DNA of 64,000 nt from Kiritimatiellia bacterium. GTDB taxonomy: Bacteria > Verrucomicrobiota > Kiritimatiellia > RFP12 > UBA1067. Numbering within the stretch: the first letter of the stretch is position 1; each line of letters begins with the position of its first letter. The stretch is taken from NCBI GenBank assembly GCA_024405265.1, contig JAKSOZ010000001.1, positions 27,263-91,262 of the forward strand. The letters are read 5' to 3'. The translations under genes were made by a program, and so were the position numbers. The notes under the pieces were generated by a model. The model did no database searches, had not been told where the DNA came from, and worked only from the letters and a program-made list of their open reading frames with translations. This document shows, piece after piece, positions 12,144-59,350 of the stretch.

Positions 12144-12193
12144 CTTTCTTCCTTTCCATTCTTGCCGCGGAAGCGGCAAATTTGGTATAATAT
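12144..12193 (+). promoter_or_regulatory. portable promoter module copy 1: CTTTCTTCCTTTCCATTC-TTGCCGCGGAAGCGGCAA-ATTTGGTATAATAT
   Basis: near-identical copies at 26547-26598 and 59300-59350; contains perfect hairpin TTGCCGC/GCGGCAA in -35 position and extended -10. Confidence 0.6.
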
Positions 12194-12204
12194 AAATCTA
12201 AAAA

Positions 12205-13136
12205 TGAAGATTTCGCTCATAACGGTTTGCTGGAATAGTGCCGCGGTGATTAGGACCGCGCTCGACTCCGTCTTCGCCCAGTCAACTCCCGCCGATCTTG
12301 AAATCGAATACATTGTCGTCGACGGCGGCTCGACGGACGGAACGGTGGAGATTTTGAAGGAATACGCTACTCGTCCTGTGCCCGAGCATCGTATGCTCGG
12401 GTCAACCCCTATCTCCTTCCGATACATCTCGGAACGTGATGCCGGGATGTATGACGCCCTGAATAAGGGCATTAGGATGTCCACGGGAGAGGTGATCGGG
12501 TGGCTCAATGCCGATGATGTTCTTGCCGCGGATGATGTGCTCGCGAAAGTGGCGGCCGCTTTCGAGGCGAATCCCGACATCGACGGCACCTACGCCGACA
12601 TCCGTTTTGTTAAGCCCCTAGTGAAGGGCAGTGATGAGCCCGAAACGAGCGGAAGTCCGAGCGAAGGGATACCCGGATTGGAGCGCAGCGGAAATAGGCG
12701 TAGCCCGCGGTATTCCGCCGAGGGGCTCCCTGAGGAGGAGCTTCCGGCGTTGAGGGCGTTGCCCACGCTTCGCTATTGCTCCGGCAAGCATTTCCGCCCC
12801 TGGATGTTCCGCTTCGGCACCCAGACGGCGCATCCCTCGACCTTCTTCCGCCGCTCCGCATTCGATCGCTGGGGCTTTTACTCGCTCGACTACGGCATGT
12901 TCGGCGACTTCGAGCTTCTCTGCCGCTTTATCTGGCGCCATCGCGCGAAAATGCGCTACCTCCCGTTCTGTACGACGGTCATGCGCTCCGGCGGCGCTTC
13001 AACGAACGGCTGGCGCACGACCTTAAAGATCAATCGCACGGACCTCCGCGCTCTTAACGCAAACGGCTGCTACTCGAATCTCCTCTTCCTCTACTCCCGC
13101 TACTTCTTCAAAATTTGGGGCTTCCTCTTTAAATAA
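12205..13136 (+). CDS. glycosyltransferase family 2
   Basis: ISLITVCWNSAAVIRTALDSVFAQ...VVDGGSTDGT...LNADD motifs. Confidence 0.7.
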
Positions 13137-13185
13137 CCTCTCTTCCGACTCCACCGAGCGGAAATTGTTGAAGTGATATTCTTGC

Positions 13186-13212
13186 CGCGGGAAGCCGCGG
13201 CGTTTTTTATAT
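13186..13212 (+). terminator. rho-independent terminator GCCGCGG-GAA-CCGCGGC followed by TTTTTT
   Basis: hairpin plus U-run read directly after GT2 stop. Confidence 0.65.
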
Positions 13213-13213
13213 C

Positions 13214-13258
13214 GGCGAAAAGTCAATTCTAGTGTTTTATAAAACGTTAGAATTGACT
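13214..13258. promoter_or_regulatory. 40-bp AT-rich palindrome AGTCAATTCTA-N-TTTTATAAAAC-N-TAGAATTGACT (copy 1 of 3)
   Basis: near-identical copies at 14093-14137 and 14163-14207 flank the two-wHTH regulator gene. Confidence 0.55.
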
Positions 13259-13275
13259 CGGATCTCGTTTAATGG

Positions 13276-14070
13276 TTATGCCTCTTCTTCGTCAGGGGAG
13301 GGTGGTTGAGTGTCCGGGGCGGGTTTGGGTTTGATGATGACAGGGCCGGTTTCTCGCCAATTTTGCCGCGGATTGCCTTCCGCGCGATTGACTTTTTTGA
13401 GGACGGCCTTCGTCTCTTTGTCGGTCGCGCGCCCCGTACCTTCGTTGTAGTAATACGCATGACTCGCCGCGTTGCCAAGCGTCAGATCGAGTAAAGTTGC
13501 GGCGATTTTGTCAGTGGGCCTCACGAGCTCGAAAGTTGAGGGGCCGTGATATGTGCGCGTTTCGTGGATGAGTCCCGCAGCTTGCAAAAAGCCGAGATGA
13601 TGATAAATCGACTTCACGCAAACTCCCATCGCAGCGTAAAGTTCGTTCAAATATGCCGGGCCTTGGGCGAGGCGAATCAGAATCGCCAGGCGGTTAAAGT
13701 GAGTGAAGGCGCGAAGGGTGGTCATGATCGACTCTTCCCACTTGGGCGGCAGCTCCGCGGCAAAATAGGTGGCGAAGGCTTTTTGGAGTTCGATCGAATC
13801 GGGAAGCGAGCGGTCCTGCTCGTCATTGTAGTAGACTTTGATGCGATCTCGCTTTACGCCGATGAGACCGCGTGCATTCAGTTGACGGAGAGAAATACTC
13901 GCGGTGGCATCGGAAATGCTGAGGATGCGGGCATAGTCTCGCACGCAAAGTGCGCCTTCATTTTGAATGGCGAGGCGAAGCACATTGAGTCTTGTCGCGT
14001 TCATCAACGCGCGGCAGGTGCGCCATAAAGTCGGCTTCAGTTTTTTCTCATCGTTCATGATGAAAATCAT
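13276..14070 (-). CDS. transcriptional regulator with two tandem ArsR/SmtB-like winged-HTH domains
   Basis: two repeats of the ArsR-type HTH pattern (RLNVLRLAIQNEGALCVRDYARILSIS... and FNRLAILIRLAQGPAYLNELYAAMGV...). Confidence 0.55.
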   Translation of the reverse strand: MIFIMNDEKKLKPTLWRTCRALMNATRLNVLRLAIQNEGALCVRDYARILSISDATASISLRQLNARGLIGVKRDRIKVYYNDEQDRSLPDSIELQKAFATYFAAELPPKWEESIMTTLRAFTHFNRLAILIRLAQGPAYLNELYAAMGVCVKSIYHHLGFLQAAGLIHETRTYHGPSTFELVRPTDKIAATLLDLTLGNAASHAYYYNEGTGRATDKETKAVLKKVNRAEGNPRQNWRETGPVIIKPKPAPDTQPPSPDEEEA

Positions 14071-14092
14071 TCTACCATATTACCGGTCGAGA

Positions 14093-14207
14093 AGTCAATT
14101 CTAAAGTTTTATAAAACATTAGAATCGACTTCGGGAAAGAGGAGATGGGCAAATACGGTTGACAGATTCTAAAGTTTTTAAAAACGTTAGAATCGACTTC
14201 GGAGGAG
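14093..14207. promoter_or_regulatory. two further copies of the 40-bp palindrome upstream of the regulator gene
   Basis: 14093-14137 and 14163-14207, read directly. Confidence 0.55.
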
Positions 14208-15584: not shown

Positions 15585-15732
15585 CTCGAGTCTAAATGAG
15601 AAAGACGATATACGTTTATCGCCAAAGCACGCGTTGTAGGACTATTCATGCGTGTCGGGAGCTTTTTCTTGTCTTTCGATGGGGTGATATCGATATCGAT
15701 GATTAAAAATAGGATTTTGCAAGGAAGTTGAT

Positions 15733-20035: not shown

Positions 20036-20195
20036 ACGATTCGGGGTTTGATGAGTAAAAACAATAAGGGGTAATTAATGACTGCCAACCGTCGGATATT
20101 CCTGAACATATTGCCACATGCGGGTGTTCTCTGTATGCGTTGGCAAGTTGTTTTGGACGGCGATAGGTGCGGAATGTGCGGAATTTTGGTATAAT

Positions 20196-20345
20196 ATGAA
20201 GCGTAATTTGAGTGTGAGAATGAGACAGAATCGACTTGGGCGTGGTGTCCGGCGCGGACGCGACGGCGAAGGGTCTTTGCGTCGTTCGCGCGATACCTAT
20301 GCTCTCCGTCCTATGCACTGGGGCTTGTCTCTCCTGGGTTTATAA
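20196..20345 (+). promoter_or_regulatory. conserved ~150-nt transcribed leader following TGGTATAAT (copy 1)
   Basis: nucleotide homology to 24941-25075 that does not preserve a reading frame; shares GCACTGGGG(C/T) motif also at 27078-27098. Confidence 0.4.
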
Positions 20346-21410: not shown

Positions 21411-21844
21411 GAGGGATTGAATATGGAACGAAAGCATTATTACACTGACGAGCGGAATACGCAGATTGTTATTGCGTTGCTGAAGACGTATGGGATATTT
21501 CGGTTTGGTCGGAGAGAGGGGTATTCTAGGTGACCGCAAACAAGCGCATATTCTTTAACATCATTGCCACATACGGCCGATTGCGGCCTTCGGCTATTTC
21601 CGCTTCGCTCCAATCCGGGTATGCGTTGGTGATTTTTGCGGCAGGAATAAAAAGATTGCCGCATCTATTCAAATTTTGGCAAATCTGATATAATATTGCG
21701 TAGAAAATGAGTAAGACGATTACTATCGATCGCCATTGGACGCGGTGTAGATTTGCGCACCTCGTAGCGAGAGCTTTGCGCGCGGCGAACATCAACTCTA
21801 CACCTACGCCTTATTTCTACACCTAATTTACGGAGTAAATTCTT

Positions 21845-22600
21845 ATGATCAAAGTCGGTATTATCGGTTGTGGATTTGTCGGGGGCGCGCTGAAGGCGTG
21901 GCTCGAAGAGAATAACAAGGACGCGGTCATTCGCGTCAGCGATCCGCCGAAGGGGTTCAATGACGACCTCTCGGACATTGACATCGCGTTCTTGCAGATT
22001 CACGTGCCGACCGAGGACGACGGTACTCAGGATTTGACGCTCATGAAGGAACTGATTCGCAAGCTGCCGAACGTTCCGGTCTTCGTCCGTACGACGATTC
22101 TCCCGGGCACCTCGGACCTCCTCTCGCGCGAGACGGGTCATCAGGTCTGCTACATGCCGGAGTTCTTGACCGAGCGCACACACATCGAGGACTTCAAAAA
22201 GCAGACGATGGTCTTTACCGGCGCTGTCGATCTTCTGATCAAGGTCTTCCCGTCGAAGAAGTTTACGGTCATGTCCCCGCTTGAGGCCGAGATCACGAAG
22301 TATTCCCACAACGTCTTCGGCGCGTACAAGGTGACATACTTCAACGCCGTACGCGAGTACTGTGAGAAGATGGGCGCGGACTGGGCAAAGGTCCACACGG
22401 GCTGCCTCCTCTCCGGCTACATTAACGACACCCACACCTACGTCCCCGGTCCGGACGGCAAGTTCGGTTATGGCGGCAAGTGCTTCCCGAAGGACGTCAA
22501 CGCCTTTGCGAAGCTCACCGAAGACTGCTCGCTCGGTAAGCTCCTCGCTCCGCTCCATGACCTCAACGTCCACTTCCGTGGATTTGAAGAGCATATATAA
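21845..22600 (+). CDS. short UDP-glucose/GDP-mannose dehydrogenase-family protein
   Basis: N-terminal GIIGCGFVGG Rossmann motif and catalytic GGKCFPKD motif; only about 251 aa. Confidence 0.55.
   Translation: MIKVGIIGCGFVGGALKAWLEENNKDAVIRVSDPPKGFNDDLSDIDIAFLQIHVPTEDDGTQDLTLMKELIRKLPNVPVFVRTTILPGTSDLLSRETGHQVCYMPEFLTERTHIEDFKKQTMVFTGAVDLLIKVFPSKKFTVMSPLEAEITKYSHNVFGAYKVTYFNAVREYCEKMGADWAKVHTGCLLSGYINDTHTYVPGPDGKFGYGGKCFPKDVNAFAKLTEDCSLGKLLAPLHDLNVHFRGFEEHI
22541..22600 (+). repeat. direct repeat A (3' end of dehydrogenase gene), repeated at 25075-25133
   Basis: CTCCTCGC(T/C)CCGCT(C/T)CA(T/C)GA(C/A)CTCAACGTCCACTTCCGTGGATTTGA(A/G)GAGCATAT present twice. Confidence 0.8.
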
Positions 22601-24928: not shown

Positions 24929-25133
24929 ATATATTGGGTGTAAGATGAATGTGAGAACGAGACAGAATCGACGTGGTTGTGGAGTATCGCGAGTACTCGA
25001 CGGAGAAAGGGCTTGGTTTCAATCGTCCAATCCTATGCACGCATCTTATGCATCGAGGCCTGTCCCCCTTGAACTCCTCGCCCCGCTTCACGAACTCAAC
25101 GTCCACTTCCGTGGATTTGAGGAGCATATTTGA
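24929..25133 (+). promoter_or_regulatory. leader copy 2 fused to duplicate of dehydrogenase 3' end (chimeric junction)
   Basis: 24914-25075 homologous to 20181-20330; 25075-25133 homologous to 22541-22600. Confidence 0.5.
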
Positions 25134-26465
25134 TGTCTGCAAAGTTCGTATCATTGGGGGATGTTGATGCGGCATCCAAACCGTCCTTATGGTCTCCAGA
25201 GGATGACGAGGTACGCGTTAAATTATCTAGCACGATGGTTAGCTTTGTGTCGGCTCAGACAATGCCGCTTACGATTGGCTTGGATGGAGTATGGGGTAGT
25301 GGCAAAACCTATTTCTTGCGTCGGTTTGAGACTGACTATGCGAATTCGGCTGGTTCTGGGGCATGCATTTATCTAAACGCGTGGGAGCGGGATTTTCTCC
25401 ACGATCCTTTACTATATCTTTTCTACGGGTTAGATGAATTCGTTACGCGAAATCCAGACTATGCCTCGATTGATGACTTTAGTTGGGATGTGTGCAAGAA
25501 GAATCTTGTGGCTATTGCGAAGGGTAGCTTATCGGCCGTATTGCACGTTGCAACTAATGGCGCATCAGACAAAGTTATGGAAGGGATTGATGCGTGCTCA
25601 AATTCGATAGACAAACATCCGCTTAGCTTGTATCGCGAACAAACGCATTCAGTCGATACAATTAAAGGGTACCTAACAAAACTTGGTAATAAGGTACGTG
25701 AATCAACTGAACATAGTCTTTGTTCTTGGCCTAGATTTTGTTCAACTTGGGAAATCAATTCAGTCATTGTACGGGGAGATTGATACCGGGAATTATCTTC
25801 ATCGAATGATACAGTATCGATTCTCTCTGAGTGCTCTTCCGATTGACATGTTTGTCAGGACGATAGCAGAGCGAGATGCGATAAACACGCTTGTTTGGAA
25901 GTCGAAACCTAGATATCCTAATGAGCCGACATCAAATGATACTTTGGCGTTCAAGGTGTTCTGCTGGTTTGCCAAATTCTACGGGATATCTCTTCGTCAG
26001 ATTGAGCGGGCTATCGGGTTTTATCGAATGTCTGTAGTGTCTCCTCATCAATCCTCTTTGGCGATGGCGGTTTTTGCTATGACAAGTGTTTTGAAGGTAC
26101 ATGGGAATGGACTTGATAAGTTGCTGGTCGATGTTTCTGCAGAGGAATCTATAGTAGCCGATATACTTGACGAAAAAGGTTCTTCGAATAAACAAGATAG
26201 CAGTTGCATAAGGGAATTCCTGACTTATCTGATTAAAGCCTCCCGATGCACCGGCAGTGAGTCGGCAGAAAGGTTATATGGGGAATATCGTTCGCGCTAT
26301 CAGTTGTCTAAAGCGCGGCAGCCTGTCGATGATGCCTTTGGTCCGATGACCGTAGAGCTTTTGCTTAGGGCGTTTTATGCAGAGTTTGATAATGAATACA
26401 TTGATTTTGGAGATTCTCTCGTTAATATTGCAACGAGATGCATAAATTTGCAATGTGTCGTGTGA
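25133..26465 (+). pseudogene. KAP-family P-loop NTPase with frameshift near 25690-25715
   Basis: Walker A GLDGVWGSGKTYFL; ORFs 25130..25783 and 25683..26465 overlap by 100 nt in different frames. Confidence 0.5.
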
Positions 26466-26546: not shown

Positions 26547-26598
26547 AACTTTCTTCCTTTCCATTCTTGCCGCAGAAGCGGGAAATATGGTATAATAT
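26547..26598 (+). promoter_or_regulatory. portable promoter module copy 2 (palindrome variant TTGCCGCAGAAGCGGGAA)
   Basis: aligned by eye with 12144-12193. Confidence 0.55.
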
Positions 26599-26620
26599 CT
26601 ATGTAGAAACGAGGTGCGAA

Positions 26621-27025
26621 ATGGAAGAAAGAAAACTGTATAACGAATGCGCTAATTGCTGGTGCTTCAAGAATAAACGGTGTGATGGCCGCTACCATAA
26701 TGTCGAGGAAATCAAGGCTGAAGATGGCTCGATCATTGAGTCGAGTTCTTTCTCGCTTGGCGATATGAATTGTGAGTGGCCTGGTGACGGGGAATGCGCG
26801 AAGCGTCTTGTTACGGTTGAAGATGGGTGTATCTATCTCAACTATGCCGACCAATATCCGATTCGCATGCTTTCCACTTTCACTAAGAACGAGATGGCTG
26901 AGTTTATGGTTCATCTTACGGGGAAGACCTGGTACTCGATCTTTCTTCAGCGTGTGTTTGTGCGCCGTGTGTTTGAATTAAAGGGTTGGTCGCCAACGAT
27001 TGAGCTTGACATTTCGCGAATGTGA
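26621..27025 (+). CDS. Cys-rich hypothetical protein
   Basis: 134 aa, CxxC pairs near N-terminus; GAGG 9 nt upstream of ATG. Confidence 0.45.
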   Translation: MEERKLYNECANCWCFKNKRCDGRYHNVEEIKAEDGSIIESSSFSLGDMNCEWPGDGECAKRLVTVEDGCIYLNYADQYPIRMLSTFTKNEMAEFMVHLTGKTWYSIFLQRVFVRRVFELKGWSPTIELDISRM

Positions 27026-27134
27026 GCAGAAACGCATGGACGGAGACTAGGAGGATTTGTATCATTTGCGAGATCCCTCGCACTGGGGTCTATCGCTTAC
27101 GAATTCTATTTTTGATGCTGAGGTGTAGCAGTGG

Positions 27135-28844
27135 ATGAGCCGAAGAAAACTATCAAAGAATAAGCAGGCGGCTATTGATAAACGTTTGCTTAACGGGGCT
27201 CGGGGCAAGCTTGTGTCTTGCCTTGCACGCATTTTGCCGCAAGCAGAGAAGCTTCTGAAAAAGCCAATTAAGGAGACGCCTATTCATGACGTTTGGCTTG
27301 AACGAGAGGCGAACGAGAAGTCAACACTCGCAACGCTGCATGAAGCGTTAAGGCGTAAGCCCGTCATACAACCGCCGAAATGGGGCTTTAATCTTCAGAA
27401 GGTTGCATTGCCGGATAAAGGGGTTGTGAAGAGGTCGTATTTCTCAGGTTTGAAATGGCCGATTCTAGAACAGGCATCTGAACACGTTATTCACCTGAAA
27501 TCTGGATCGATTGGAGTGCTGGTGGTTGATCTTCGAGCAGAATCATCAGATTACCAGAGGTATACATTTGTGCGACTCACGGAAAAGAAGTCGACTTTGA
27601 TGTTGATACCAGAAGGTTGTGCATTTGCCTATTATGGACTTGCCCGATTCTCAAAGATTGAGCTCCGTGGTCGTAGTAAGGGAGAATTTCAGTTTCTAAA
27701 GGCTCTTGATGTCCTTGATCCTTCCCTAGGGATTGATCGAATAGACGGGGTGCCTACGAAAGTGTTGAATGATAATCGAAAGAGTTTCGCAAGATTCGAG
27801 ACGTTGACGCCTTGGGACTCGCGAATCAGCCATCGGGTGCTGACGCGCGGCGAACGAATGATTATTAACGCGATGGATGTCGCGAGTGATCGCGAGTATC
27901 AGATTAAACCCAAGGGGGTTGAATTTGTTTTTGATGAGTCTTGCGACCGTGGAGTGTTGCATGTTCGTGAGTATTCGGCTTTTATTCAAGTCCTCGGTAA
28001 GTTGAAATATTTATTTGCTGGCGCTGATAAGGCGCGCGGTGCAAGAATGGGAATCGCTTTCCGAGGGCAGGTTATGGGATATGGAGATCATATGATACCA
28101 TCTCTGTATCGGGGCGTTAAGACAGATAAAGAACGGAAGCGGCGTGAAAGCCATCTTTCGGAGAAGATCAAACGAGCGGTGGGGTATTTTGACCAGCTCA
28201 AGAAGTTGGATGATAGCGTTGTCGAGGCGTTGTTTCAGCAGTATGGGGTTGATACGAGTTGGATTGATGCTGTTGATAATGTGTGGATCGCTCTTTGGTT
28301 TGCTTGCCATCGAGCGGAATGTTGTCTTCAGGGGCGCTCGGTTCATTACGTGCGCCGCGATCCAAACAAAGAGTGTCCAAACGTTAGATATGCGTATATT
28401 GTGGTGTTTGGATACCCAGATTCGGTGTTGTCAGGAACCCGTAAATCTAGGCTCGGCCCTGGTCATGTTTTGAAAGACGGAGTTGAGTATATAGATCTCC
28501 GTCTGGCGGTGCCGTCTCAATTTGTACGTCCCCATGCGCAGCACGGGCTTATGCTAAGGCAATATTCGGATAAAAGGGAGCCGAAAACTGATTACCGAGA
28601 GTTGGTGCAGGCAATCATTCGTATTGATTTAGTGGATGCTCTTCGATGGTTGGGGTCCGGTGAGGCCGTTTCATTTGGGGCTTTGTTTCCACCGCCAGTA
28701 CACGACGCTGGTTTCCAAGGACTTCTTCGGATGGAGGATAGGACAAAGCTTAAGCACTCCGATATGTATTCCGAACTTAAGGTAAAAGAAGCTGGTGGGG
28801 AACATGAGTATAAGTCATTAAGTTTTCAGAGGTTTGATATATAG
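27135..28844 (+). CDS. FRG-domain protein
   Basis: FRGQ...IPSLYR signature about residue 300; 569 aa. Confidence 0.55.
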   Translation: MSRRKLSKNKQAAIDKRLLNGARGKLVSCLARILPQAEKLLKKPIKETPIHDVWLEREANEKSTLATLHEALRRKPVIQPPKWGFNLQKVALPDKGVVKRSYFSGLKWPILEQASEHVIHLKSGSIGVLVVDLRAESSDYQRYTFVRLTEKKSTLMLIPEGCAFAYYGLARFSKIELRGRSKGEFQFLKALDVLDPSLGIDRIDGVPTKVLNDNRKSFARFETLTPWDSRISHRVLTRGERMIINAMDVASDREYQIKPKGVEFVFDESCDRGVLHVREYSAFIQVLGKLKYLFAGADKARGARMGIAFRGQVMGYGDHMIPSLYRGVKTDKERKRRESHLSEKIKRAVGYFDQLKKLDDSVVEALFQQYGVDTSWIDAVDNVWIALWFACHRAECCLQGRSVHYVRRDPNKECPNVRYAYIVVFGYPDSVLSGTRKSRLGPGHVLKDGVEYIDLRLAVPSQFVRPHAQHGLMLRQYSDKREPKTDYRELVQAIIRIDLVDALRWLGSGEAVSFGALFPPPVHDAGFQGLLRMEDRTKLKHSDMYSELKVKEAGGEHEYKSLSFQRFDI

Positions 28845-28876
28845 GAGTAGCTTCGGCGCAGTTCAATGTATAGCTT

Positions 28877-30217
28877 ATGAGACGCAAAGATTTATTTTCA
28901 TTTGGCAATACGCCGGCGGAGCGCTCGGCGGCGCGGTTGTTGTTTTTGATAGGTCTAGGCTCGTCTACTCAGATTAACATCGGTGGGTATACGGCGATTT
29001 CGGAACTGCTGCTTGTTCTCTATATGCCGATTGCGATGGCGAAGAATTGGGGGCTGTTTAGGCGCGATCGGTGCACGGCAATTTTGTGGTTGCTTATCAT
29101 CTGGGGCTTAGGGCAGTTGGCAACGGATTTGTCGATTGGAAATTATTTTGCGTTCATGATTCGCGGATTGATCCCTCCTGTAGGCATCTTTGCTGCATTG
29201 ATTACAGTATATCCTTTGCTCAAGCGTAACCCAGATGGGCTCAAATGGATCCTTCTGGGGACGGCTATCTCAGGTGTTGTCTCTATCTTTGTCTTTCAGC
29301 ATGGTTCAGATATTGACACCGCAGAGGTGCGGTCAGGTGCGATGTCTGTATCAGAAGCTGTTATGGGGTATAAGTTATTCTGGGTTGGAAAGTTGAATGA
29401 GTGGCTCGCGCTACCAGTTAAAGGCTGGTATATGCATATGCCGCATGGGGGGAATGTTGTAATTGCAGCGTTTCTTGCAGTATTCGGTCTTGCTTCTGGA
29501 GGGCGATCCGCATTTCTTGTTTGTATGGTATCAACGTTGCTGTTGATGTTTGGAGGAAAGTCGAGTCGCAAAATGAGGTGGCTTAAGAAGAGTTGGCCGA
29601 TTCTGGTTGGACTTTTGATAGTATTAATTCCAATAGTTAAATTTACCTATCAATTTGCGGCTAGTAGTGGATGGATGGGGGAGGAAGAATTAGCAAAGTA
29701 TGAGGAACAATCAAAAGGTAAGAGTGGCTTAGAGACACTGATGGCAGGCAGGGCTGAGTTTTTTATCGCGCTTTCTGCTATTAAAGACAAACCATTGTTT
29801 GGACATGGGTCGCATGCTCTGGATACAGCTGGATATAAGCTAAATTTTTTCATTAAGTATGGCGCGGACGAAGAAACTTTGAAGAGAATTCAAGGAGTAG
29901 AAAAGATCTCAGGAGTTCGTACAATTCCAGCTCATTCGCATATTGCCGAGTTTTGGATGTGGGCGGGAATTCCTGGCCTTCTGCCATGGATATATATCCT
30001 CGTATTGCTGGGAAAGACTTTATTTAAAAGAATGCATATTTATCCGCCTTATTATGGATATTTCGCCCTAATCATCCCGTCGATGTTTTGGCATATCTTC
30101 TTCTCGCCGTTCGGTAGCCGCATTAATATGGCCGTGATGATTGCTGCTTGTTTGGTCGTGCAGACCATGGAGCGAGAGCAGAGACGGACGAACGGATTTA
30201 TAGCAAAGGCATGGTAA
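28877..30217 (+). CDS. O-antigen ligase/polymerase-like (Wzy/WaaL family) integral membrane protein
   Basis: about 10 TM helices with large periplasmic loop near C-terminus; context in a glycan cluster. Confidence 0.5.
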   Translation: MRRKDLFSFGNTPAERSAARLLFLIGLGSSTQINIGGYTAISELLLVLYMPIAMAKNWGLFRRDRCTAILWLLIIWGLGQLATDLSIGNYFAFMIRGLIPPVGIFAALITVYPLLKRNPDGLKWILLGTAISGVVSIFVFQHGSDIDTAEVRSGAMSVSEAVMGYKLFWVGKLNEWLALPVKGWYMHMPHGGNVVIAAFLAVFGLASGGRSAFLVCMVSTLLLMFGGKSSRKMRWLKKSWPILVGLLIVLIPIVKFTYQFAASSGWMGEEELAKYEEQSKGKSGLETLMAGRAEFFIALSAIKDKPLFGHGSHALDTAGYKLNFFIKYGADEETLKRIQGVEKISGVRTIPAHSHIAEFWMWAGIPGLLPWIYILVLLGKTLFKRMHIYPPYYGYFALIIPSMFWHIFFSPFGSRINMAVMIAACLVVQTMEREQRRTNGFIAKAW

Positions 30218-30221
30218 GATA

Positions 30222-31457
30222 ATGAAAGTCATTCTTTCAACAGGACATGGGCGACTTCATCTTGTGCAATCAGCAACTTGGTTGCGTAAGTTGGGGTTGA
30301 ATGTTAGAGTTTTAACGGGATGGATTCCGAAACATCCGGATGGATTACTAGTTAAGTTGGCCTCGAAAATTGTTCGTCGCGATTTAACTTCCGGGATGAA
30401 GAAGCGCCTTGTTCCCGAACTTGAAGGATGTGTTAGGACATGTCCTTTAGCGGAGTCTCTTGACACTCTTTTGCGAGTAGCATGTCGAATCTTAAAGATA
30501 TCTACCCATCGAGTGTCTTCGATAGGCTGGACAATCTTCGGCCTTGCGAGTCGCAAGTATCTAAAGGATGCAGACATCTTTCATTGCCGTTCAGGTGCAG
30601 GACAGGGTGGTGCGATTAAACTCGCACGGAACCGTGGGATGAAGATTTTGGTTGATCACAGTTGCCTTCATCCGGCTAAATGCGAGGAGAATCTCAAGGA
30701 TGACTACGCGCGTTGGGGGCAGGAGATTGTCATTGCTCCCGGTCGAGGCGTTTGGAAGAACGTACTTAAAGATTGCGAAGATGCTGATATGATTATGGTC
30801 AATGCGAATCATATTCGTGATTCGTTTGTTGAGCAGGGGTACGCGCCGGAGAAGGTTAGAGTTGTTTATTTGGGTGTACGGGAAGATTTTCAGGGCGTGA
30901 AGAAGAACTACGCGAGCCATGGAACTTTTAGGGTTCTTTTTACAGGTGGATTTATTATTCTTAAAGGCGCGGAGTATCTTCTCGAGTCGCTTAAGATATT
31001 GAAAGAACGTGGGGTTGATGTTGCGTATGATGTGATCGGCTCGGTCGGTGCTCCAAAAGCATTGCTCGAAAAGTATAGCAATCTTCCGTTTAAATTTTAT
31101 GGTGTTTTACCGCAAGATAATTTGAAGTCTCATCTCGCAAATGCGGATGCGTATCTCTTCCCTTCACTTGCCGATGGTTGCGCACAAAGCGGAATGGAAG
31201 CATTAACGGCGGGTCTTCCGGTTGTGGCGACTTATCAAAGCGGGCTTCCGATAACGGATGGTGAGAATGGATGTGTGGTGCCGATGAAGGATGCCATGGC
31301 AATTGCCGATAAAATCGAGTGGTTGATTGCACATCCAGAAGAGCGAGAGAGGTTGGGTAAGTCTGCTGCAAAGATGATGAGAGAAAAATATACATGGCGG
31401 CATTATGCGGAGAATGTTCGAGACCTCTACGAGGAACTTGTAGAGAGTGGGAGTTGA
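30222..31457 (+). CDS. glycosyltransferase family 4 (GT-B, group 1)
   Basis: C-terminal pattern FPSLADGCAQSGMEALTAGLPVV typical of GT4 (ExxxxxxE variant). Confidence 0.65.
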   Translation: MKVILSTGHGRLHLVQSATWLRKLGLNVRVLTGWIPKHPDGLLVKLASKIVRRDLTSGMKKRLVPELEGCVRTCPLAESLDTLLRVACRILKISTHRVSSIGWTIFGLASRKYLKDADIFHCRSGAGQGGAIKLARNRGMKILVDHSCLHPAKCEENLKDDYARWGQEIVIAPGRGVWKNVLKDCEDADMIMVNANHIRDSFVEQGYAPEKVRVVYLGVREDFQGVKKNYASHGTFRVLFTGGFIILKGAEYLLESLKILKERGVDVAYDVIGSVGAPKALLEKYSNLPFKFYGVLPQDNLKSHLANADAYLFPSLADGCAQSGMEALTAGLPVVATYQSGLPITDGENGCVVPMKDAMAIADKIEWLIAHPEERERLGKSAAKMMREKYTWRHYAENVRDLYEELVESGS

Positions 31458-31479
31458 AAGTTGGAGTGGGAGAATGGTG

Positions 31480-32547
31480 AAGAAACATTATTATTTGTTA
31501 GACGTGCTAAGAGCACTGGAAATGCTCGCAGTGGTAAGGGGCCATTATCGTAATGTGCTTTTCCCTTCATGGAGCGAGGTTGCGCATTCCTCAAGAGGGG
31601 GGGGGGTACAGCTCCTCTATGCCCTTACGAGGTGGGGGCACAGCGCTGTTATCGTCTTCTTTGTGTTGAGTGGATTTTTGGTCGGAGGTAAATCAATCGA
31701 GAGGGCCATGCGAAATCAGTTTGACATAATCGGATACGCAAAGAATCGATGCGAGCGGATTTTCCCTCCGCTTGCATTGATGTGCTTTCTTGTGCCGGTT
31801 ACGTTTCTTAGCCTTGGCGTTCCTGTACCGTGGGGTTCGGTTTTGGGTAATCTTTTTTCTTTGCAAGGACTTTGCTGCCAGTCGTTGCTCGGCCCTTGGT
31901 GGGCGCTTTCGGTTGAAGTCTGGTTCTATGTTTGGTGTGGCGCGGCGTTAGGTGCATGGCGTGCGAAGGGGGGGCTCCGATTCCTATGCGCTGGGATCCT
32001 GGCGCTAATGAGCTTCATCTTCATTCGTGGATCGATTTGGTTCTTGCTAATATGGCTACTCGGCGCGGCAACTTATTTCGTTTTGCCGCGGACGAAGAAT
32101 ATCTGGCGATTGCTGGGATCGTTTGTCGCCTGCGCGGCGCTTGCAGTCGTTGGCTCGCGAACAACAACAAACGCTCAAATTGCTGATTTCTTTTTAGGGG
32201 TTGGCTTGTGCTTGATTGTTCGCGAGGTCGTGATGTGGGAGCCGAGCGGCTTAATTTCCAGGACGGCAAATAAGCTCGGAACGTGGTTGTCTGCTCCGTC
32301 GTATTCGATTTATCTTTCTCATATGCTGGTTATGATTGTCTTTGCGAACCTGTTCTTAACTCCAGCGGCAAGTGCGACTGTGGATCGTGAGTATATGGTT
32401 CAAGAAGGAATCCTTGCTGCATTTACGAAGGTCGGTGCACTTGAAATCGGTGCATTGATTGGTTCGTTGGTGCTTGCAATTGTTTTCGGTTATCTCGTGT
32501 ATCTTGTTGCGGAAAAGCCTTGGTGGAAAAGGCGAGTGGAAGTCTGA
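31480..32547 (+). CDS. acyltransferase family 3 (O-acyltransferase) membrane protein; contains G11 tract at 31593-31603
   Basis: N-terminal LDVLRALEMLAVV and multi-TM architecture of the OafA/acyltransferase_3 family; homopolymer read directly. Confidence 0.6.
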   Translation, partial: KKHYYLLDVLRALEMLAVVRGHYRNVLFPSWSEVAHSSRGGGVQLLYALTRWGHSAVIVFFVLSGFLVGGKSIERAMRNQFDIIGYAKNRCERIFPPLALMCFLVPVTFLSLGVPVPWGSVLGNLFSLQGLCCQSLLGPWWALSVEVWFYVWCGAALGAWRAKGGLRFLCAGILALMSFIFIRGSIWFLLIWLLGAATYFVLPRTKNIWRLLGSFVACAALAVVGSRTTTNAQIADFFLGVGLCLIVREVVMWEPSGLISRTANKLGTWLSAPSYSIYLSHMLVMIVFANLFLTPAASATVDREYMVQEGILAAFTKVGALEIGALIGSLVLAIVFGYLVYLVAEKPWWKRRVEV

Positions 32548-32566
32548 AGTTGGAGTGGGAGAATAT

Positions 32567-33439
32567 ATGAATCCGATACTGTCAATTGCTATTGTCAACT
32601 TTAACTACGGCCGCTATCTGGAGGCGGCGGTTCGCTCTGTTCTTGATCAGCAGGTCGAGGGCGTGGAGTTGGTCGTTGTCGACGGCGGTTCGAAGGATAA
32701 CTCAGTAGAGGTCATCAAAAAGTACGCGGATAAGCTTGGCTGGTGGGTGAGTGAACCTGATAAGGGGCAGAGCGATGCCTTTAACAAGGCGTTTGCGCAT
32801 TGTCGCGGCAAGTATCTCACATGGCTCAATGCCGATGATATCATGCCGAAGGGGTGCCTCAAGAAGATTGTGAAAGAGTTGGTTCGTCACCCGAAGTGCG
32901 AATGGTTTACGGGGAACCTCTTTCGGTTTGTAGACAAGCTGAAAGAGGAGGTGGAGAAAATAGGTGGAGGTGGAGAGCGGACGGTTTATCCTGTTGTTGA
33001 ATGCGCATGGGGACCGAATTATTTGCCGGGGTTCTTGCAGGGCAAAGGAATGCCGATTGCGGTGTACGGCCCTGCGACGATTTTCACGAAGCGAATCTTT
33101 GATGCGGCGGGTGGCATGAAGCTTCACCAGAACTTCATGATGGACACGGATTTATGGATGCGGTTCGTGATGATGGGCGTGAAGCAGCGGCGCATCAATT
33201 GTTTCTGCTGGGCGTTTCGTATGCACGTCGATTCGAAGACGGCGGAGTTCGGCGATCACAAGCTCTCGCCCGAGCAGCGCACGAAGTTCGAAGCCGAGCG
33301 AAAGGCGTCGCATGAGGCGACGGGGTATAAGCCGAGCAAGGTGTTGGGGCGGCTGTGGCAGCTGTGGCGAATTCTCGATGGTTCGTTTGTTAAGGGGCTG
33401 TGGCTGAAGAAGATGTTTAAGCACGTGGAGGTTGTATAA
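32567..33439 (+). CDS. glycosyltransferase family 2
   Basis: LSIAIVNFNYGRYLEAAVRSVLDQ...VVDGGSKDNS...LNADD. Confidence 0.7.
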   Translation: MNPILSIAIVNFNYGRYLEAAVRSVLDQQVEGVELVVVDGGSKDNSVEVIKKYADKLGWWVSEPDKGQSDAFNKAFAHCRGKYLTWLNADDIMPKGCLKKIVKELVRHPKCEWFTGNLFRFVDKLKEEVEKIGGGGERTVYPVVECAWGPNYLPGFLQGKGMPIAVYGPATIFTKRIFDAAGGMKLHQNFMMDTDLWMRFVMMGVKQRRINCFCWAFRMHVDSKTAEFGDHKLSPEQRTKFEAERKASHEATGYKPSKVLGRLWQLWRILDGSFVKGLWLKKMFKHVEVV

Positions 33440-37573: not shown

Positions 37574-37578
37574 TACAT

Positions 37579-38655
37579 ATGTCCGATCGTAATCAATCGT
37601 TAGACGCAGCTCGTTGCGTGATGAACTATATGATTGTCATTCTTCATGCATGGGCGGTGTTTCAGTATGTGAAGTGGGATACGATTGAATTCATATCTTG
37701 GACTGTTATTTGCTCGCACCTGATGTGGCTTGCGATACCGGCGTTCTTTATGATCAGCGGGTATTTGCTCTTTCAAAAGTTCTCGCTTGCGAGTTGGCCG
37801 AACAAAATGGTGCGCCGCGTGAAGCGATTGGCGGTTCCGTATTTTGCGTGGAATATCTTCTTCGTCGCCTTTTACTTGGCGCTCGCGCATTTTGTGCCGC
37901 GGCTTGGGACGCGCGTCGCTTCGTTCGGGCTCGACACGATTGGTGGAGCAATTTCGAAGATCGCAAGTCTCACGGTTGCGCCGATTGACGGACCGCTTTG
38001 GTTCTTGCGCGTGTTGTTTCTCTTCGCGCTCGTTTCGCCGATTCTGTGGTGGTTGATGTGCTTTGCGAGGGGATGGGCGCTTTTCGGAGCTACGGTTGTT
38101 TGGTGCGTCGTAGAAGGAATGTTAGGTATTGCCGAGCCTCTTCATCTAACGGCTCCTGCGTATGCGCTTTCGTGTTTCGTCTTAGGTGGCGTTTTGGCAC
38201 GCAATGAAAAGGATTTGGTCTCGACTTTCAAGCATTGGGGGTGGTTTGCCATTGGACTCGCCGCATGCTTGATTCGTGCCGCAATTTCCATACCTCGCCT
38301 TGGCGTACATTCAGATACAAACGCGGCGATCAGTATCATTCTCTCGCTTCTGGCGATTCTTGAGGCGCCGGCGCTTATTTCGCTCGTGAGTCACATTCGT
38401 ACGGAAGGCGTTGTGAAGAGCCGCGTCTACGGATTTCTGAAGGAGATGTCTTTCTTCGCGTATGCTGGGCACTTTCTCTTTTGTTCGATGTGGCTTCATA
38501 CCGCGGCACCTTTGCTTTCCGGAATGGGGGGGGGTAAGATGACGCTTTTGATTTTGATCTTTGTCGGTTGTGGTATTCCGACAATGGCACTAGTGTATTG
38601 GCTCGGCAAGCGGATATGTCCTCGAGCGATGAAAATCTTTGATGGGACTTTGTGA
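37579..38655 (+). CDS. acyltransferase family 3 membrane protein; G9 tract at 38526-38534
   Basis: multi-TM, acyltransferase_3-like N-terminus (LDAARCVMNYMIVILH). Confidence 0.6.
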   Translation: MSDRNQSLDAARCVMNYMIVILHAWAVFQYVKWDTIEFISWTVICSHLMWLAIPAFFMISGYLLFQKFSLASWPNKMVRRVKRLAVPYFAWNIFFVAFYLALAHFVPRLGTRVASFGLDTIGGAISKIASLTVAPIDGPLWFLRVLFLFALVSPILWWLMCFARGWALFGATVVWCVVEGMLGIAEPLHLTAPAYALSCFVLGGVLARNEKDLVSTFKHWGWFAIGLAACLIRAAISIPRLGVHSDTNAAISIILSLLAILEAPALISLVSHIRTEGVVKSRVYGFLKEMSFFAYAGHFLFCSMWLHTAAPLLSGMGGGKMTLLILIFVGCGIPTMALVYWLGKRICPRAMKIFDGTL

Positions 38656-38657
38656 TC

Positions 38658-39788
38658 ATGAAGATACTTCACGTCATAACCGGTATGAAGAAAGCGGCGG
38701 GGACGAGCGTTTTCGCCGGAGAGGTGACGAATGAACTCGTCGCGCAAGGGCATGAGGTTGCAATTGCCGTTGCAGATCCCAAGTGCGACGATTGCTACAA
38801 GCTCGATCCGCGCGTGAGGCTAATTGGTTTTGGCGAGGTCGTAGTTGCTGATTATGACATCGTTCATATTCATGCGCTCTGGTCGCCGATTCTTTCGAGG
38901 ATTGCAAGGACAGCGCGTAAGGCAGGCGTGAAAGTTGTGTGGTCACCTCACGGAATGCTCACCCCGTGGGCGCTCAAGAACAAGTGGTGGAAGAAACTTC
39001 TTGGACTTGTTCTCTATCAATATTGGGCGCTTCGGAATGCCGACCTAATTCATGTCACCGCGCAGAGCGAAGTCGAAGATGTAAGGAGACTCGGGCTGAA
39101 GAACGAGGTGGTGGTAGCGCCGTTGGGAGTAAGGGTTAGCCGTGTAGAACGTATAGAACGTGTAGAAAAGAAAGAGAAGACGCTTCTGTTCGTGTCGAGA
39201 GTTCAGCGGAAGAAGGGGTTGCCGAATCTATTGGACGCGTGGGCGAGATTGCCGGAGGAGTTGAAGAACGATTGGACGATTAGAATCGTCGGTCCGGATC
39301 AGGATAATCATACCGCAGAGCTTAAGGAGCTCTGCGAGAAGTTGAAGATCAAAGTCGAAGTCGAAGTGCAGTTCGTCGGGCCTAAGTATGATGAGGAACT
39401 GGATTGGGAGTACAGGAACTCTGATCTTTTCGTATTGCCTACGCATTCCGAGAACTTCGGTTCTGTGGTTATTGAGGCGCTCGCGCGCGGCGTGCCGGTT
39501 ATCTGCACGAAGGAGGCCCCTTGGGAAGAACTCGAGACGCATAAGTGCGGTTGGTGGATTGATGATAACGTCGATGCTTTAGAAGCGGCATTGCGAGATG
39601 GATTAAGCCGTGTAGAACGTGGAGAACATGTAGAAATGGGGAAGAAAGGATTGGAGCTTGTAAAGTCCAAATACGATTGGAAGGTTATCGGTAAGACTAT
39701 CGCCGATGCCTATTGGAAGATTTCGCACGGATGCGAAAAGGGTCGTTGCGTTAATTGCGCTGAGTTGTACGACACGTGTAGTCCGTAA
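38658..39788 (+). CDS. glycosyltransferase family 4
   Basis: MKILHVITGMKKAAGTSVFAGEV...; C-terminal GT4 motif region; internal 9-nt repeats (SRVERIERVE / SRVERGEHVE). Confidence 0.65.
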   Translation: MKILHVITGMKKAAGTSVFAGEVTNELVAQGHEVAIAVADPKCDDCYKLDPRVRLIGFGEVVVADYDIVHIHALWSPILSRIARTARKAGVKVVWSPHGMLTPWALKNKWWKKLLGLVLYQYWALRNADLIHVTAQSEVEDVRRLGLKNEVVVAPLGVRVSRVERIERVEKKEKTLLFVSRVQRKKGLPNLLDAWARLPEELKNDWTIRIVGPDQDNHTAELKELCEKLKIKVEVEVQFVGPKYDEELDWEYRNSDLFVLPTHSENFGSVVIEALARGVPVICTKEAPWEELETHKCGWWIDDNVDALEAALRDGLSRVERGEHVEMGKKGLELVKSKYDWKVIGKTIADAYWKISHGCEKGRCVNCAELYDTCSP

Positions 39789-54873: not shown

Positions 54874-54877
54874 TGTT

Positions 54878-55477: not shown

Positions 55478-55699
55478 GTTCTCGCAGATTTCTTATTCTA
55501 CGGCTTATGTGTTATGTGGTCGTCGATGCCTCCGCGCGCGTGTCTCGAACGCCGCGCTAGATGATAAAATGGATTGATGTTTTAAGTAACGAGATTGTGG
55601 TTTTATGCGTACTTATTAGCATAGAACGCTTTGCCCGCCGGCAATCTCCAATAGAGGTGTGCACACCTCGCGGAAAATATGATATAATATAAGCATACA

Positions 55700-55780: not shown

Positions 55781-55796
55781 CGCGTTGATTTTTCTT

Positions 55797-56615: not shown

Positions 56616-56616
56616 A

Positions 56617-58731
56617 ATGAAAATCGGCATTATTACCATTCAAAAGTGTAATAACTTTGGAGCGGATCTGCAAGCATATGCGCTAGGTGCGAAGTTGCGC
56701 AATCTCGGCTATGACGCGGAGAATATCGATTATCTCTTTTACAAGCATCCGCGGCACTTGAAAGGCAAGGGCGAAAAACCGATTTTCAAACTCTCGCTGG
56801 TTAATCGTGCGAAGGAAATTCTCTTTCCGATTGTTGCGGGGCTAAAGAATCTAAAGCGCCGCGCAGCAATCCATGCTCGTCATGAACGTTTTGCCGCGTG
56901 GACGGACGAGTATCTCAAATGCGGCCCGGAATACCGTTCTGTCGCATCGCTTTACGCGAATCCGCCGCGCTACGATGTCTACGTGGTCGGATCGGATCAA
57001 GTTTGGAATCCTCGCATGGGTTCGAATATCCTCCCATACTTCCTCGACTTTGCGCCTAAAGATGCCCGCCTAGTAAGCTATGCCTCATCGATGGGAGTTG
57101 CCGAACTCCCGGCCGGAGCGTTTTACAAATTCAAGCAACTCCTGCGTCGATTCTCGGCAATCTCCACTCGCGAGAAAAGTGCAGCGGACATTGTAAACGC
57201 AATGGCGCTAGGAGTAGAAGTCAAGCATGTTGTCGATCCGACCTTGCTATTGAGCGCGGCAGAATGGATGAAAGTGTCGAAGGTGCCAGCTGACATCCCC
57301 GCCAAGCCCTATCTCTTGTTGTATGATTTGATTGCTAGTGAAGAGACCGTAAAACTCGCCCGCAAGATTGCCGCGGAGAAGGGTTTATCGATTGTGCGCA
57401 TTGGAGATGGCGCATATGGCCCCGGCGAATTCATTTGGCTCTTTAACAACGCCGATTTCGTAGTTACGAATTCCTTCCATGGCACCGCTTTCTCAATCAT
57501 CAATAACAAGGACTTCTTCTCCGTCATACCTCGCGGCATGACGAATGCCGCGCGAATCGAAAGTCTACTTAAGGTTGTCGCTTCCGAAGATCGTCTCGTT
57601 CGAGCCGAGCATATCGATAATGTTGATTCTTCCGATTCGATAGATTGGACTAAGGTCAATTCGCTCCTCGAAGCGACGAAGACGGAATCACTCGGCTTTT
57701 TGACTCGCGCAGTAGAAAGCAAATCGAACCGAATCGAACCGAAGTTGCCAATTGGTTGCTACGCTGTCTGGAATGCTGATGATGATGTTCGTGCGGCTTC
57801 CACGAGTGGCGGACTTTTCCGTGTCCTTGCCGAGCGCACGATTGCGCGCGGGGGTGTCGTTTATGGCGCGGCGTTTTCTCAAGACTTCCATCACGTCTCG
57901 CATCAGGCCGCCGAAACAATCGATGAACTTGAGCCGCTGATGAAGTCGAAGTATGTTTGGAGCGATCCGACCGCGGCATACAAACAAGCCCTCGAACATC
58001 TCAAGTCCGGGCGCGAGGTCCTTTTCACCGGTACGCCTTGCCAAATTGCCGCGATAAAGTCGTTGGCGAAGGGTTATGACGAGAAACTGCTGACGATGGA
58101 CATCGTTTGCCATGGCACGCCTCGCCCTGAAATCTTCGAGTCCTACATTTCCGAACTTGAAAACCGTTTTGGCGGAAAGGTCACGCACTATGAATTTCGC
58201 AACAAGGATGCCGGTTGGAATTTCTCGCATGTGCGCGGCGTGTTCGAAAGCAGCGCTGTGTATGATAAAGTACTTCGCAATGATCTGTATTACCTGGCTT
58301 TTGGAATTGGAGATTCTCTTCGTCCCGGCTGTTTCAATTGCCCATTCATCGGACTTGAACGAGTCGCCGATTTTACGATTGCTGACTGCTGGCGCGTTGC
58401 TGCATCCAATCCGGAATTTGACGATGGAAAGGGGACGAGTCTCGTGCTTGTTAACTCGCCTAAGGCCGCGGCAATTTGGAAGGAGGTGCTTGCGTCAGGA
58501 AAAATCAAAGGCGGCGCATACGATCTTGACCTCGCGCAAATGCGTAACATGCCGCTAATGCAAAAGGCGCATAAGCCGCGCTCTTACGAAAGTTTCCAAC
58601 GCGTGTTTAACGAGACAAAGTCCTTTAATGAAGCAGCGAAAGTTTTTCTTACACGTAAGTTGCTCCTCAAAGCGACAATCGTCTACTGGGTTAAGAAACT
58701 CGGTTGGTTCTACTTCAAACATCATCAATAA
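56617..58731 (+). CDS. polysaccharide pyruvyl transferase domain fused to F420-hydrogenase/dehydrogenase beta-subunit-like (FrhB/FdhB) domain
   Basis: N-terminal MKIGIITIQKCNNFGADLQAYAL (PS_pyruv_trans-like); C-terminal half with Cys-rich FrhB-like region (CHGTP, CFNCP). Confidence 0.55.
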   Translation: MKIGIITIQKCNNFGADLQAYALGAKLRNLGYDAENIDYLFYKHPRHLKGKGEKPIFKLSLVNRAKEILFPIVAGLKNLKRRAAIHARHERFAAWTDEYLKCGPEYRSVASLYANPPRYDVYVVGSDQVWNPRMGSNILPYFLDFAPKDARLVSYASSMGVAELPAGAFYKFKQLLRRFSAISTREKSAADIVNAMALGVEVKHVVDPTLLLSAAEWMKVSKVPADIPAKPYLLLYDLIASEETVKLARKIAAEKGLSIVRIGDGAYGPGEFIWLFNNADFVVTNSFHGTAFSIINNKDFFSVIPRGMTNAARIESLLKVVASEDRLVRAEHIDNVDSSDSIDWTKVNSLLEATKTESLGFLTRAVESKSNRIEPKLPIGCYAVWNADDDVRAASTSGGLFRVLAERTIARGGVVYGAAFSQDFHHVSHQAAETIDELEPLMKSKYVWSDPTAAYKQALEHLKSGREVLFTGTPCQIAAIKSLAKGYDEKLLTMDIVCHGTPRPEIFESYISELENRFGGKVTHYEFRNKDAGWNFSHVRGVFESSAVYDKVLRNDLYYLAFGIGDSLRPGCFNCPFIGLERVADFTIADCWRVAASNPEFDDGKGTSLVLVNSPKAAAIWKEVLASGKIKGGAYDLDLAQMRNMPLMQKAHKPRSYESFQRVFNETKSFNEAAKVFLTRKLLLKATIVYWVKKLGWFYFKHHQ

Positions 58732-58742
58732 GGATTTCTGTT

Positions 58743-59291
58743 ATGGCAACCGACATTGAAAAGTATGTTGATGCTTTGAGTCTTAAGAACAAGCTTGCGC
58801 GTGCGGCTTGGATGGCGTTTTCGTGTGTACTCTTCCGCCCCTTTGCCGGGCCGCTCTTTCGATACTATCGTTCGCTCGTCCTTCGTCTTTGGGGTGCAAA
58901 AGTCGGGAAGCGTTGCGCAATTGCTGCCGGAGCGAAGATTTGGGCTCCTTGGAATCTGGTAATCGGAGATTATGTTGCGGTTGCGAATGGCGCCGAGCTT
59001 TATGATGTCGCACTGATAACGCTTGGAGATCATGTAACGATTTCGCAAGACTCCTACCTCTGTACGGCGAGCCACGATATCAGTAAGAAATTGAAGCCGC
59101 TTACATTCAATCCGATTCATATTGAAGCATATGCTTGGGTCTGTGCGCGTGCAACGATTCTCCCCGGAGTAACGATTGGAGAAGGTTCCGTCGCAGGTTG
59201 TGCATCAGTCGTCGCTAAAGATGTCGAACCCTGGACAGTGGTTGGAGGCAACCCGGCGAAGTTTATCAAGAAGCGGGAGCTTAAGGCTTAG
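58743..59291 (+). CDS. hexapeptide-repeat (LbH) acetyltransferase, WcaF-like
   Basis: isoleucine-patch repeats IGDYVAVANGAELYDVALITLGDHVTISQ. Confidence 0.6.
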   Translation: MATDIEKYVDALSLKNKLARAAWMAFSCVLFRPFAGPLFRYYRSLVLRLWGAKVGKRCAIAAGAKIWAPWNLVIGDYVAVANGAELYDVALITLGDHVTISQDSYLCTASHDISKKLKPLTFNPIHIEAYAWVCARATILPGVTIGEGSVAGCASVVAKDVEPWTVVGGNPAKFIKKRELKA

Positions 59292-59299
59292 GGCATAAG

Positions 59300-59350
59300 A
59301 CTTTCTTTTGACCCATTCTTGCCGCGGAAGCGGCAAATATGTTATAATAT
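59300..59350 (+). promoter_or_regulatory. portable promoter module copy 3
   Basis: GACTTTCTTTTGACCCATTC-TTGCCGCGGAAGCGGCAA-ATATGTTATAATAT. Confidence 0.55.

Follow-up and report, generated by a model that had tools for sequence, protein, structure and literature searches.

How does one short stretch of DNA come to stand before several unrelated genes of the same genome, and what does it do there? The question is raised by a 64-kb window (the whole stretch of DNA that was analysed, to which positions and counts refer unless relatives are named) from an uncultured gut Kiritimatiellia. Near-identical promoter modules had been proposed at 12144, 26547 and 59300, and all three were recovered. The modules, termed here m1, m2 and m3, lie on the plus strand at 12143-12204, 26548-26609 and 59300-59361; the blocks of near identity run from 12143 to 12193, 26548 to 26598 and 59300 to 59350 and share one orientation. 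Their 37-nt core, CATTCTTGCCGCGGAAGCGGCAAATATGGTATAATAT, is matched at 12157, 26562 and 59314 with one or two mismatches and in none of 100 shuffles, and an nhmmer profile of the three copies finds each with an E-value of about 1e-21. In m1 a pyrimidine tract precedes a -35 hexamer TTGCCG (12162-12167), on which an 18-nt palindrome begins (12162-12179), followed by a TG dinucleotide (12183-12184) and the -10 hexamer TATAAT (12186-12191). The corresponding -35 elements, palindromes and -10 elements are found at 26567-26572, 26567-26584 and 26591-26596 in m2, and at 59319-59324, 59319-59336 and 59343-59348 in m3. The expected geometry, TTGCCG placed 18 nt from TATAAT with the TG of an extended -10, holds in all three copies; the extended -10 reads TGGTATAAT in m1 and m2 and TGTTATAAT in m3. 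We consider it probable that the module is a promoter cassette of the housekeeping (sigma-70) type, which would have been copied whole, in a block of some 55-60 bp, and would now head several transcription units.

The first point to settle is whether the three copies are related or merely alike. Upstream of the shared block the flanks of m1, m2 and m3 are unrelated to one another. Similarity sets in abruptly at ACTTTCTT and runs to about TATAATATCTA, so the borders are sharp. Over 71 nt m1 and m2 are 86% identical, m1 and m3 only 73%. The upstream parts of the three modules are 66-84% identical; for the other 168 promoter pairs of the window the median is 24% and the highest value 45%. Because no other pair comes near these values, common descent and not convergence is the reading that the sequences support, and the private upstream part of the module is what would mark it.

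The rest of the module looks like an ordinary promoter of this group of bacteria. The string TGNTATAAT occurs at 16 sites in the window against 1.9 expected (for example at 4175, 10511, 10820, 14536, 40090 and 46561), and 15 of the 16 lie on the gene-rich plus strand. At no fewer than 11 of them the ATG of a long open reading frame (ORF) follows 7-24 nt after the -10 element. For the promoters of the window outside the modules the consensus is G.G..AAwATGGTATAATAT, and T(TG) stands 15 nt upstream of its TG. The same pattern was found in a set of 80 related Kiritimatiellia loci (1.1 Mb), chosen through a PaaK-like protein 82-89% identical to that of the window and taken from GTDB genomes, mostly Kiritimatiellia/Kiritimatiellae metagenome-assembled genomes (MAGs) from human, ruminant and horse gut. 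These relatives hold 165 TGnTATAAT sites with the consensus ggnGAAATaTGgTATAATA, and TGGTATAAT alone was observed 82 times against 0.7-8 expected. Counted from the TG, a TTG peaks sharply at -21/-20 (39 of the 165 sites), the very offset at which the TTG of the module lies. The stereotyped promoter of the clade, GCGGnAAATaTGGTATAATAT, equals the 3' half of the module. Since this consensus recurs in the promoters of both the window and the relatives, the 3' half is generic, the hairpin's 3' arm (GCGGCAAAT) with it, and only the upstream 30 nt, ACTTTCTTCCTTTCCATTCTTGCCGCGGAA, are private to the module. That m1, m2 and m3 are predicted promoters of the normal type for the organism is thus well supported. 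A literature search on Kiritimatiellia promoters returned no paper describing them.

Like the extended -10 (TGn) promoters read by sigma-70/SigA, these promoters have a TGnTATAAT and, 17-18 nt away, a weak -35. They differ in the longer clade consensus and in their start codons, which frequently lie just 7-14 nt past the -10. From these short distances it would follow that many predicted mRNAs in gut Kiritimatiellia must be leaderless or nearly so. In the modules the distance from the -10 to the ATG is 12 nt for m1, 24 nt for m2 and 8 nt for m3, where the ATG is that of a short ORF and the start codon of the lipoprotein gene lies 113 nt downstream of the -10.

The evidence for reuse of the promoter comes from orthologous genes in other metagenomes. 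The module m1 serves a GT2 glycosyltransferase gene (12204-13136, plus strand) whose ATG at 12204 has no Shine-Dalgarno sequence. In contig L084, which derives from another metagenome and encodes a GT2 77% identical to that of the window, the gene has a promoter different from m1 and common to a further contig, L213 (GT2 70% identical). Since both orthologs share this other promoter, m1 at the GT2 gene would be lineage-specific. L084 does carry a full module of the m2 type, placed after the GT2 gene, where it heads a DUF1016-like gene (a label judged from its sequence). At the same place the window has a remnant, ATTCTTGCCGCGG, at 13178-13210 on the plus strand, 42 nt past the GT2 stop codon. 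Here the stem has re-paired to 8 bp (13183-13202) and a T6 run follows, so that the hairpin at 13183-13208 is a clear, canonical intrinsic terminator. A degenerate fourth copy lies at 11199-11268, also on the plus strand. It retains TTCC.TT..ATTCTGCCGCGGAAG, of which ATTCTGCCGCGGAAG (11207-11221) overlaps the stop codon of a DUF4379 gene, and continues after an 18-bp insertion (11222-11239), which creates a longer hairpin, with GCGGTAAAAATGGTAAAAT and a -10 reading TAAAAT (11253-11258) before a DUF1349 gene with its ATG at 11267.

The gene for a Cys-rich protein behind m2 gives a second comparison. A strain with a Cys-rich gene 98% identical (L207) retains m2, whose left edge shows a tandem duplication of 13 bp. 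Orthologs 78% identical (L208/L209) have another promoter, TGCTATACT, joined to the same ribosome-binding leader, AGAAACGAGGTTGCAAATGG, and an ortholog 72% identical (L210) has a diverged version of the module without the palindrome at the orthologous site. Comparison of these orthologs places the right border of the module, as far as sequence can tell, at about the transcription start and points to the Cys-rich/glycan site as ancestral. Because orthologous genes in relatives carry other promoters, reuse or replacement of the promoter is the part of the proposed mobile promoter that stands, as illustrated by the copy before the DUF1016-like gene and by the GT2 and Cys-rich orthologs. The further suggestion that the promoter accompanies cassettes is without support, since no transposon features were seen and none of the scanned ORFs matched a recombinase family. 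The contig L212 from Logan ends exactly inside the -10 of a module, as assemblers break at repeats. Exact window proteins were confined to short metagenome contigs from Logan and NCBI.

The units behind the three modules are of different make. The m2 unit (26621-39788, plus strand) starts with the Cys-rich protein of 134 aa and an RmlC-like/FRG protein and goes on with a Wzy-like protein, three GT4, one GT2, three acyltransferase-3 proteins and YdjC, a glycan operon of about 13 kb; no further TGNTATAAT site follows m2 before 40090. The m3 unit (59357-63727, plus strand) comprises a 28-codon ORF (59357-59443), the lipoprotein (59462-59779), a DUF2235/Tle1-like protein (59776-60813), a 133-aa protein, an HD protein and a GT2 (62768-63727), after which an acyltransferase comes next in contig L211. 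The downstream genes had been described as functionally unrelated. For the first genes this is so: in BLASTP the GT2 does not align with the Cys-rich protein, the lipoprotein matches the Cys-rich protein at E = 5.1, and the similarity between the units ends at or before the start codons. However, all three units hold glycosyltransferase or acyltransferase genes.

Several side observations belong to these units. The 28-codon ORF behind m3 is leaderless, and about 105 nt of leader (59357-59461) separate m3 from the lipoprotein gene; positions 1-118 of L212 differ from the m3 leader only by a synonymous change from CGG to CGA. A promoter at 55680 has a similar layout, with a 26-codon ORF and a gene 108 nt on, and both short ORFs could encode leader peptides. 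Within the glycan operon short runs of a 7-nt unit, CATCAAA/CCTCAAA, at 34323-34376 and 37177-37216 are possible slippage-prone tracts. Upstream of m2 a KAP-family NTPase (25130-26465) is split into two overlapping ORFs of 217 and 260 aa; the same protein is one intact gene of 476 aa in L207 (2099-3529), and the copy of the window is probably a frameshifted pseudogene. A 45-nt inverted repeat (12664-12708 and 21583-21627, 87% complementary) has one arm within the GT2 coding region behind m1, in a segment that makes this GT2 (310 aa) longer than many homologs (261-301 aa).

How might such a family have come about? In the reading that we favour, RNA polymerase holoenzyme would recognize TTGCCG as -35, an 18-nt spacer and the extended -10 TGnTATAAT(AT), and would start transcription about 7 nt past the -10. 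The resulting leaders would be absent or very short for m1 and for the short ORF behind m3, and for m2 a 24-nt leader with a Shine-Dalgarno sequence is expected. The copy m2 before the Cys-rich gene and the glycan operon is probably the ancestral home copy. The others might have arisen through short-patch duplication or recombination and would have replaced or supplied the promoters of the GT2 gene (m1), the lipoprotein/DUF2235 unit (m3) and the DUF1349 gene (copy 4, since decayed). The copy after the GT2 gene would be intact in L084, while that of the window would have turned into a terminator by decay. The palindrome would be secondary in this scheme; if it has an extra role, this is most likely that of an insulator or terminator, a 3' hairpin closing the transcripts that read through from upstream, a suggestion that we make only weakly.

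Some results weigh against the reused promoter cassette. The case for m2 as the source draws on one diverged ortholog (L210) and on a weak similarity of the m2 and m3 leaders. The family amounts to five full and two to three decayed copies in a few metagenomes. Exact-pattern scans of GTDB representative genomes, JGI metagenomes and viral contigs returned no module; the first of the patterns was too strict, as it would miss the variant in L084. A looser 19-mer gave at least 120 stretches in the JGI metagenomes, and among the matches listed all were chance or coding and lacked a -10. Finally, the glycan genes common to the units mean that selection for shared regulation could add to the conservation of the modules. 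Other searches were also negative: nhmmer found no module in the 80 related loci, and neither the modules nor the m3 leader had an Rfam match. A candidate relative of the module in locus L010, CCATTCTGCCGCG, was rejected as the coding 3' end of a ClC-channel gene.

Similar cases have been described before. Putative mobile promoters are highly similar non-coding sequences upstream of non-homologous genes in one genome, with no associated mobile element known and a proposed role in transcription rewiring (Matus-Garcia, Nijveen and van Passel 2012; summarised in PMC3575422). The modules conform to this concept: a similar upstream block stands before non-homologous genes and is shared with a related genome. 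The screen of 2012 considered the region from -150 to -50 relative to the start codon and asked for an identity of 80% or more across 50 nt or more (PMC3575422). By this account m1 and m2 reach the identity (86% over 71 nt) and their downstream genes are non-paralogous, but the blocks lie at about -61 to -1 (m1) and -73 to -12 (m2). They fall outside the region because the leaders are very short, and it is the range of the screen and not the concept that they miss. A further difference is that the promoter elements themselves can be read here and matched to a clade consensus.

JUMPstart/ops is a short conserved sequence upstream of different enterobacterial polysaccharide clusters (Hobbs and Reeves 1994, cited in PMC5399914). 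The modules resemble it by standing before several glycan clusters. JUMPstart is located in the transcribed leader and acts through the ops motif and RfaH anti-termination. In contrast, the module would end at about the transcription start, occurs in an unrelated phylum and has no ops motif GGCGGTAG in or near it, the three sites of this motif in the window all being far from the modules. Correia elements, ERIC and REPIN are short intergenic repeats that contain palindromes and harbour functional promoters (PMC3575422). The module is likewise short, intergenic and palindrome-containing. Those repeats carry terminal inverted repeats or target duplications, occur in many copies and in both orientations, and have known or inferred transposases, whereas none of these features was seen here.

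What, then, is the role of the palindrome? A hairpin TTGCCGC-GGAA-GCGGCAA had been claimed for all three copies. It is perfect in m1 and m3, but m2 reads TTGCCGC-AGAA-GCGGGAA, with an AGAA loop and one pair broken by a G:G mismatch. The palindrome may be an operator, an insulating terminator or incidental. The first of these would make the module a promoter plus operator: a dimeric regulator might bind the 18-bp palindrome, or a 30-bp quasi-palindrome CCATtcTTGCCGCggaaGCGGCAAatATGG, between -35 and -10 and co-regulate the surface-glycan units, and the conservation of the module would then reflect selection and not recent copying alone. We regard this as possible, if doubtful. It would agree with the glycosyltransferase or acyltransferase genes in every unit and with the overlap of the palindrome with the -35 and the spacer, a classic repressor position. 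In the window the palindrome is also unique to the modules, no other occurrence being found with up to two mismatches, and a few promoters of relatives have palindromes of their own of 8-10 bp at the same position (for example in L018 and L047). However, covariation in the five full copies is uninformative: 91% of cells pair, no pair has a compensatory change, and three copies break a G:C pair. The palindrome in L084 has two departures, the orthologous promoter in L210 lacks it, the 18-bp insertion splits the half-sites in copy 4, and the 3' arm is identical to the general promoter consensus. Moreover, the copy in L084 serves the DUF1016-like nuclease gene and not a glycan gene. No candidate regulator is linked to the modules; the neighbouring ArsR-like gene is an unlikely one, as it is flanked by different palindromes of its own.

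The second possibility is a bifunctional element that punctuates transcription, in which the hairpin with the A/U-rich -10 region would end or stabilize the upstream transcript while the same DNA restarts transcription. This too we hold to be unlikely, though worth weighing. RNA folding gives terminator-like hairpins for m1 (-15.5 kcal/mol) and m3 (-14.6 kcal/mol), and a lenient terminator scan (5 T in 8) flags both; m2 is not flagged. The position of some copies fits as well: m3 begins 9 nt past the stop codon of a hexapeptide-transferase gene with no other terminator there, and copy 4 begins on the upstream stop codon. Both decayed copies retain or rebuild hairpins in new registers although their promoter geometry is lost, namely -20 kcal/mol in copy 4 and the 8-bp stem with T6 in the remnant. 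Such hairpins could be due to selection in favour of a 3'-end hairpin or to template-switch mutation, which at quasi-palindromes can yield perfect hairpins without any selection. Further points against a terminator are the poor U-tracts (AUUUGGUAUA, AUAUGUUAUA), the stems weakened in m2, L207 and L084, and the promoters of the relatives, among which spacer hairpins are not enriched.

Taking these possibilities together, one could see in the module a self-contained cassette of terminator and promoter centred on the hairpin, which would be actively propagated through hairpin-directed recombination or template switching, would insulate and switch on new genes of glycan and defence islands, and might carry the operator of a glycan regulon. 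We think this improbable. Very improbable, in our view, is a small non-autonomous mobile element, similar to a MITE (miniature inverted-repeat transposable element) or a repetitive extragenic palindrome (REP), mobilized in trans through the hairpin and carrying an outward promoter. The module is indeed a short intergenic repeat with sharp borders around a palindrome, has at least five copies or remnants in 64 kb, occupies different places in different genomes and breaks the contig L212. Yet, by inspection, the flanks show neither terminal inverted repeats, apart from the central palindrome, nor a consistent target-site duplication. Every copy is co-oriented with its downstream gene, and the right border would be a transcription start and not the end of an element. 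No transposase, RAYT or integrase is present among the ORFs of the window scanned against Pfam, and the module is absent from the 1.1 Mb of relatives and from viral contigs.

A last set of claims concerned the 9-mer TTGCCGCGG, said to be far more frequent than expected and to mark truncated modules at five sites. In the window the excess is real: 14 copies against 0.73 expected from dinucleotide shuffles make it the joint most frequent 9-mer, and Markov models give 0.8-3 (orders 1-4) or 7-11 (orders 5-7). In the 1.1 Mb of relatives, in contrast, 32 copies were observed against 32-45 expected. The strand split in the window is 12:2, and 8 of the 14 copies cluster within 9.8-13.8 kb. Two lie in m1 and m3 and one in the terminator remnant; copy 4 reads ATTCTGCCGCGG and so lacks the exact 9-mer. 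None of the remaining 11 sites is at a gene start, and eight of them encode Ala-Ala (GCC GCG or GCG GCA) on either strand, with frames read by eye. As a mark of truncated modules the 9-mer was therefore mostly misleading: copy 4 and the remnant are decayed modules, but the sites at 9841, 13363 and 32083 were rejected as ordinary coding words. That TTGCCGCGG(A) is a genome-wide over-represented word, similar to an uptake sequence or to Chi, which the modules just happen to contain, has next to no likelihood in our eyes: its top rank, its strand split and the hairpins that its inverted pairs give after genes would suit such a word, but it is not enriched in relatives, most of its non-module sites are Ala-Ala codon pairs in ORFs, its spread is uneven with more than half of the copies within 4 kb, and higher-order Markov expectations reach 7-11.

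Three further candidates were rejected. Direct repeats similar to att sites, which would bound an island between m1 and m2, do not fit, as there is no integrase among the Pfam-scanned ORFs and all copies stand before a gene with the geometry of a promoter. An invertible promoter is at odds with the single orientation of all copies and the lack of flanking inverted repeats, and an integron attC site with the position 5' of genes and the lack of an IntI integrase.

The window contains other repeats and features. Inverted repeats of 76 nt (3994-4069 and 10373-10448, 89% complementary) bracket a 6.3-kb block whose GC content of 0.42-0.44 is low beside the value of about 0.52 around it; a tRNA-Val (2232-2307) lies some 1.7 kb upstream. 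The block encodes a PLD/NgoFVII-like nuclease, NERD and T5orf172/DUF4268 proteins and proteins of unknown function, and could be an inserted or invertible defence island. Beyond it, at 10527-10784, lies a gene for an 85-aa protein with three tandem repeats C-x2-CGS-x2-YGTGCYHSPTGKHEH and no Pfam match, preceded by a predicted promoter of the leaderless type; over 26 nt the promoters at 10511 and 10820 share 92% identity. A perfect-palindrome repeat of 39-43 nt, AGTCAATTCTA..GTTTTATAAAAC..TAGAATTGACT, occurs at 13216-13258, 14088-14130 and 14156-14198, on both sides of the ArsR-like helix-turn-helix gene (13276-14070, minus strand). These palindromes are probably operators of the gene itself, or else mark where a small element ends. 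Behind two more promoters, at 20187 and 24922, lie two copies of a 95-nt sequence (20194-20288 and 24931-25025, 73% identity), which contains short Arg-rich ORFs or possibly specifies an RNA, and a second repeat of 56 nt lies nearby (22541-22596 and 25074-25129, 91% identity). The 95-nt repeats look like another duplicated unit of promoter and leader in a region of defence genes.

The case of m1, m2 and m3 is a clear but ordinary one: promoter reuse is an already documented kind, known from thousands of families, and the modules would not represent a new kind of element. The family offers a readable example of how one promoter may be recycled for accessory genes, here surface-glycan units and a nuclease-like gene, and it also illustrates how a copy may decay into a terminator. 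Beyond the modules themselves, the promoter consensus of the clade could improve the annotation of operons and start codons in Kiritimatiellia MAGs, and its parts may serve for gene expression in gut Kiritimatiellia, an uncultured group.

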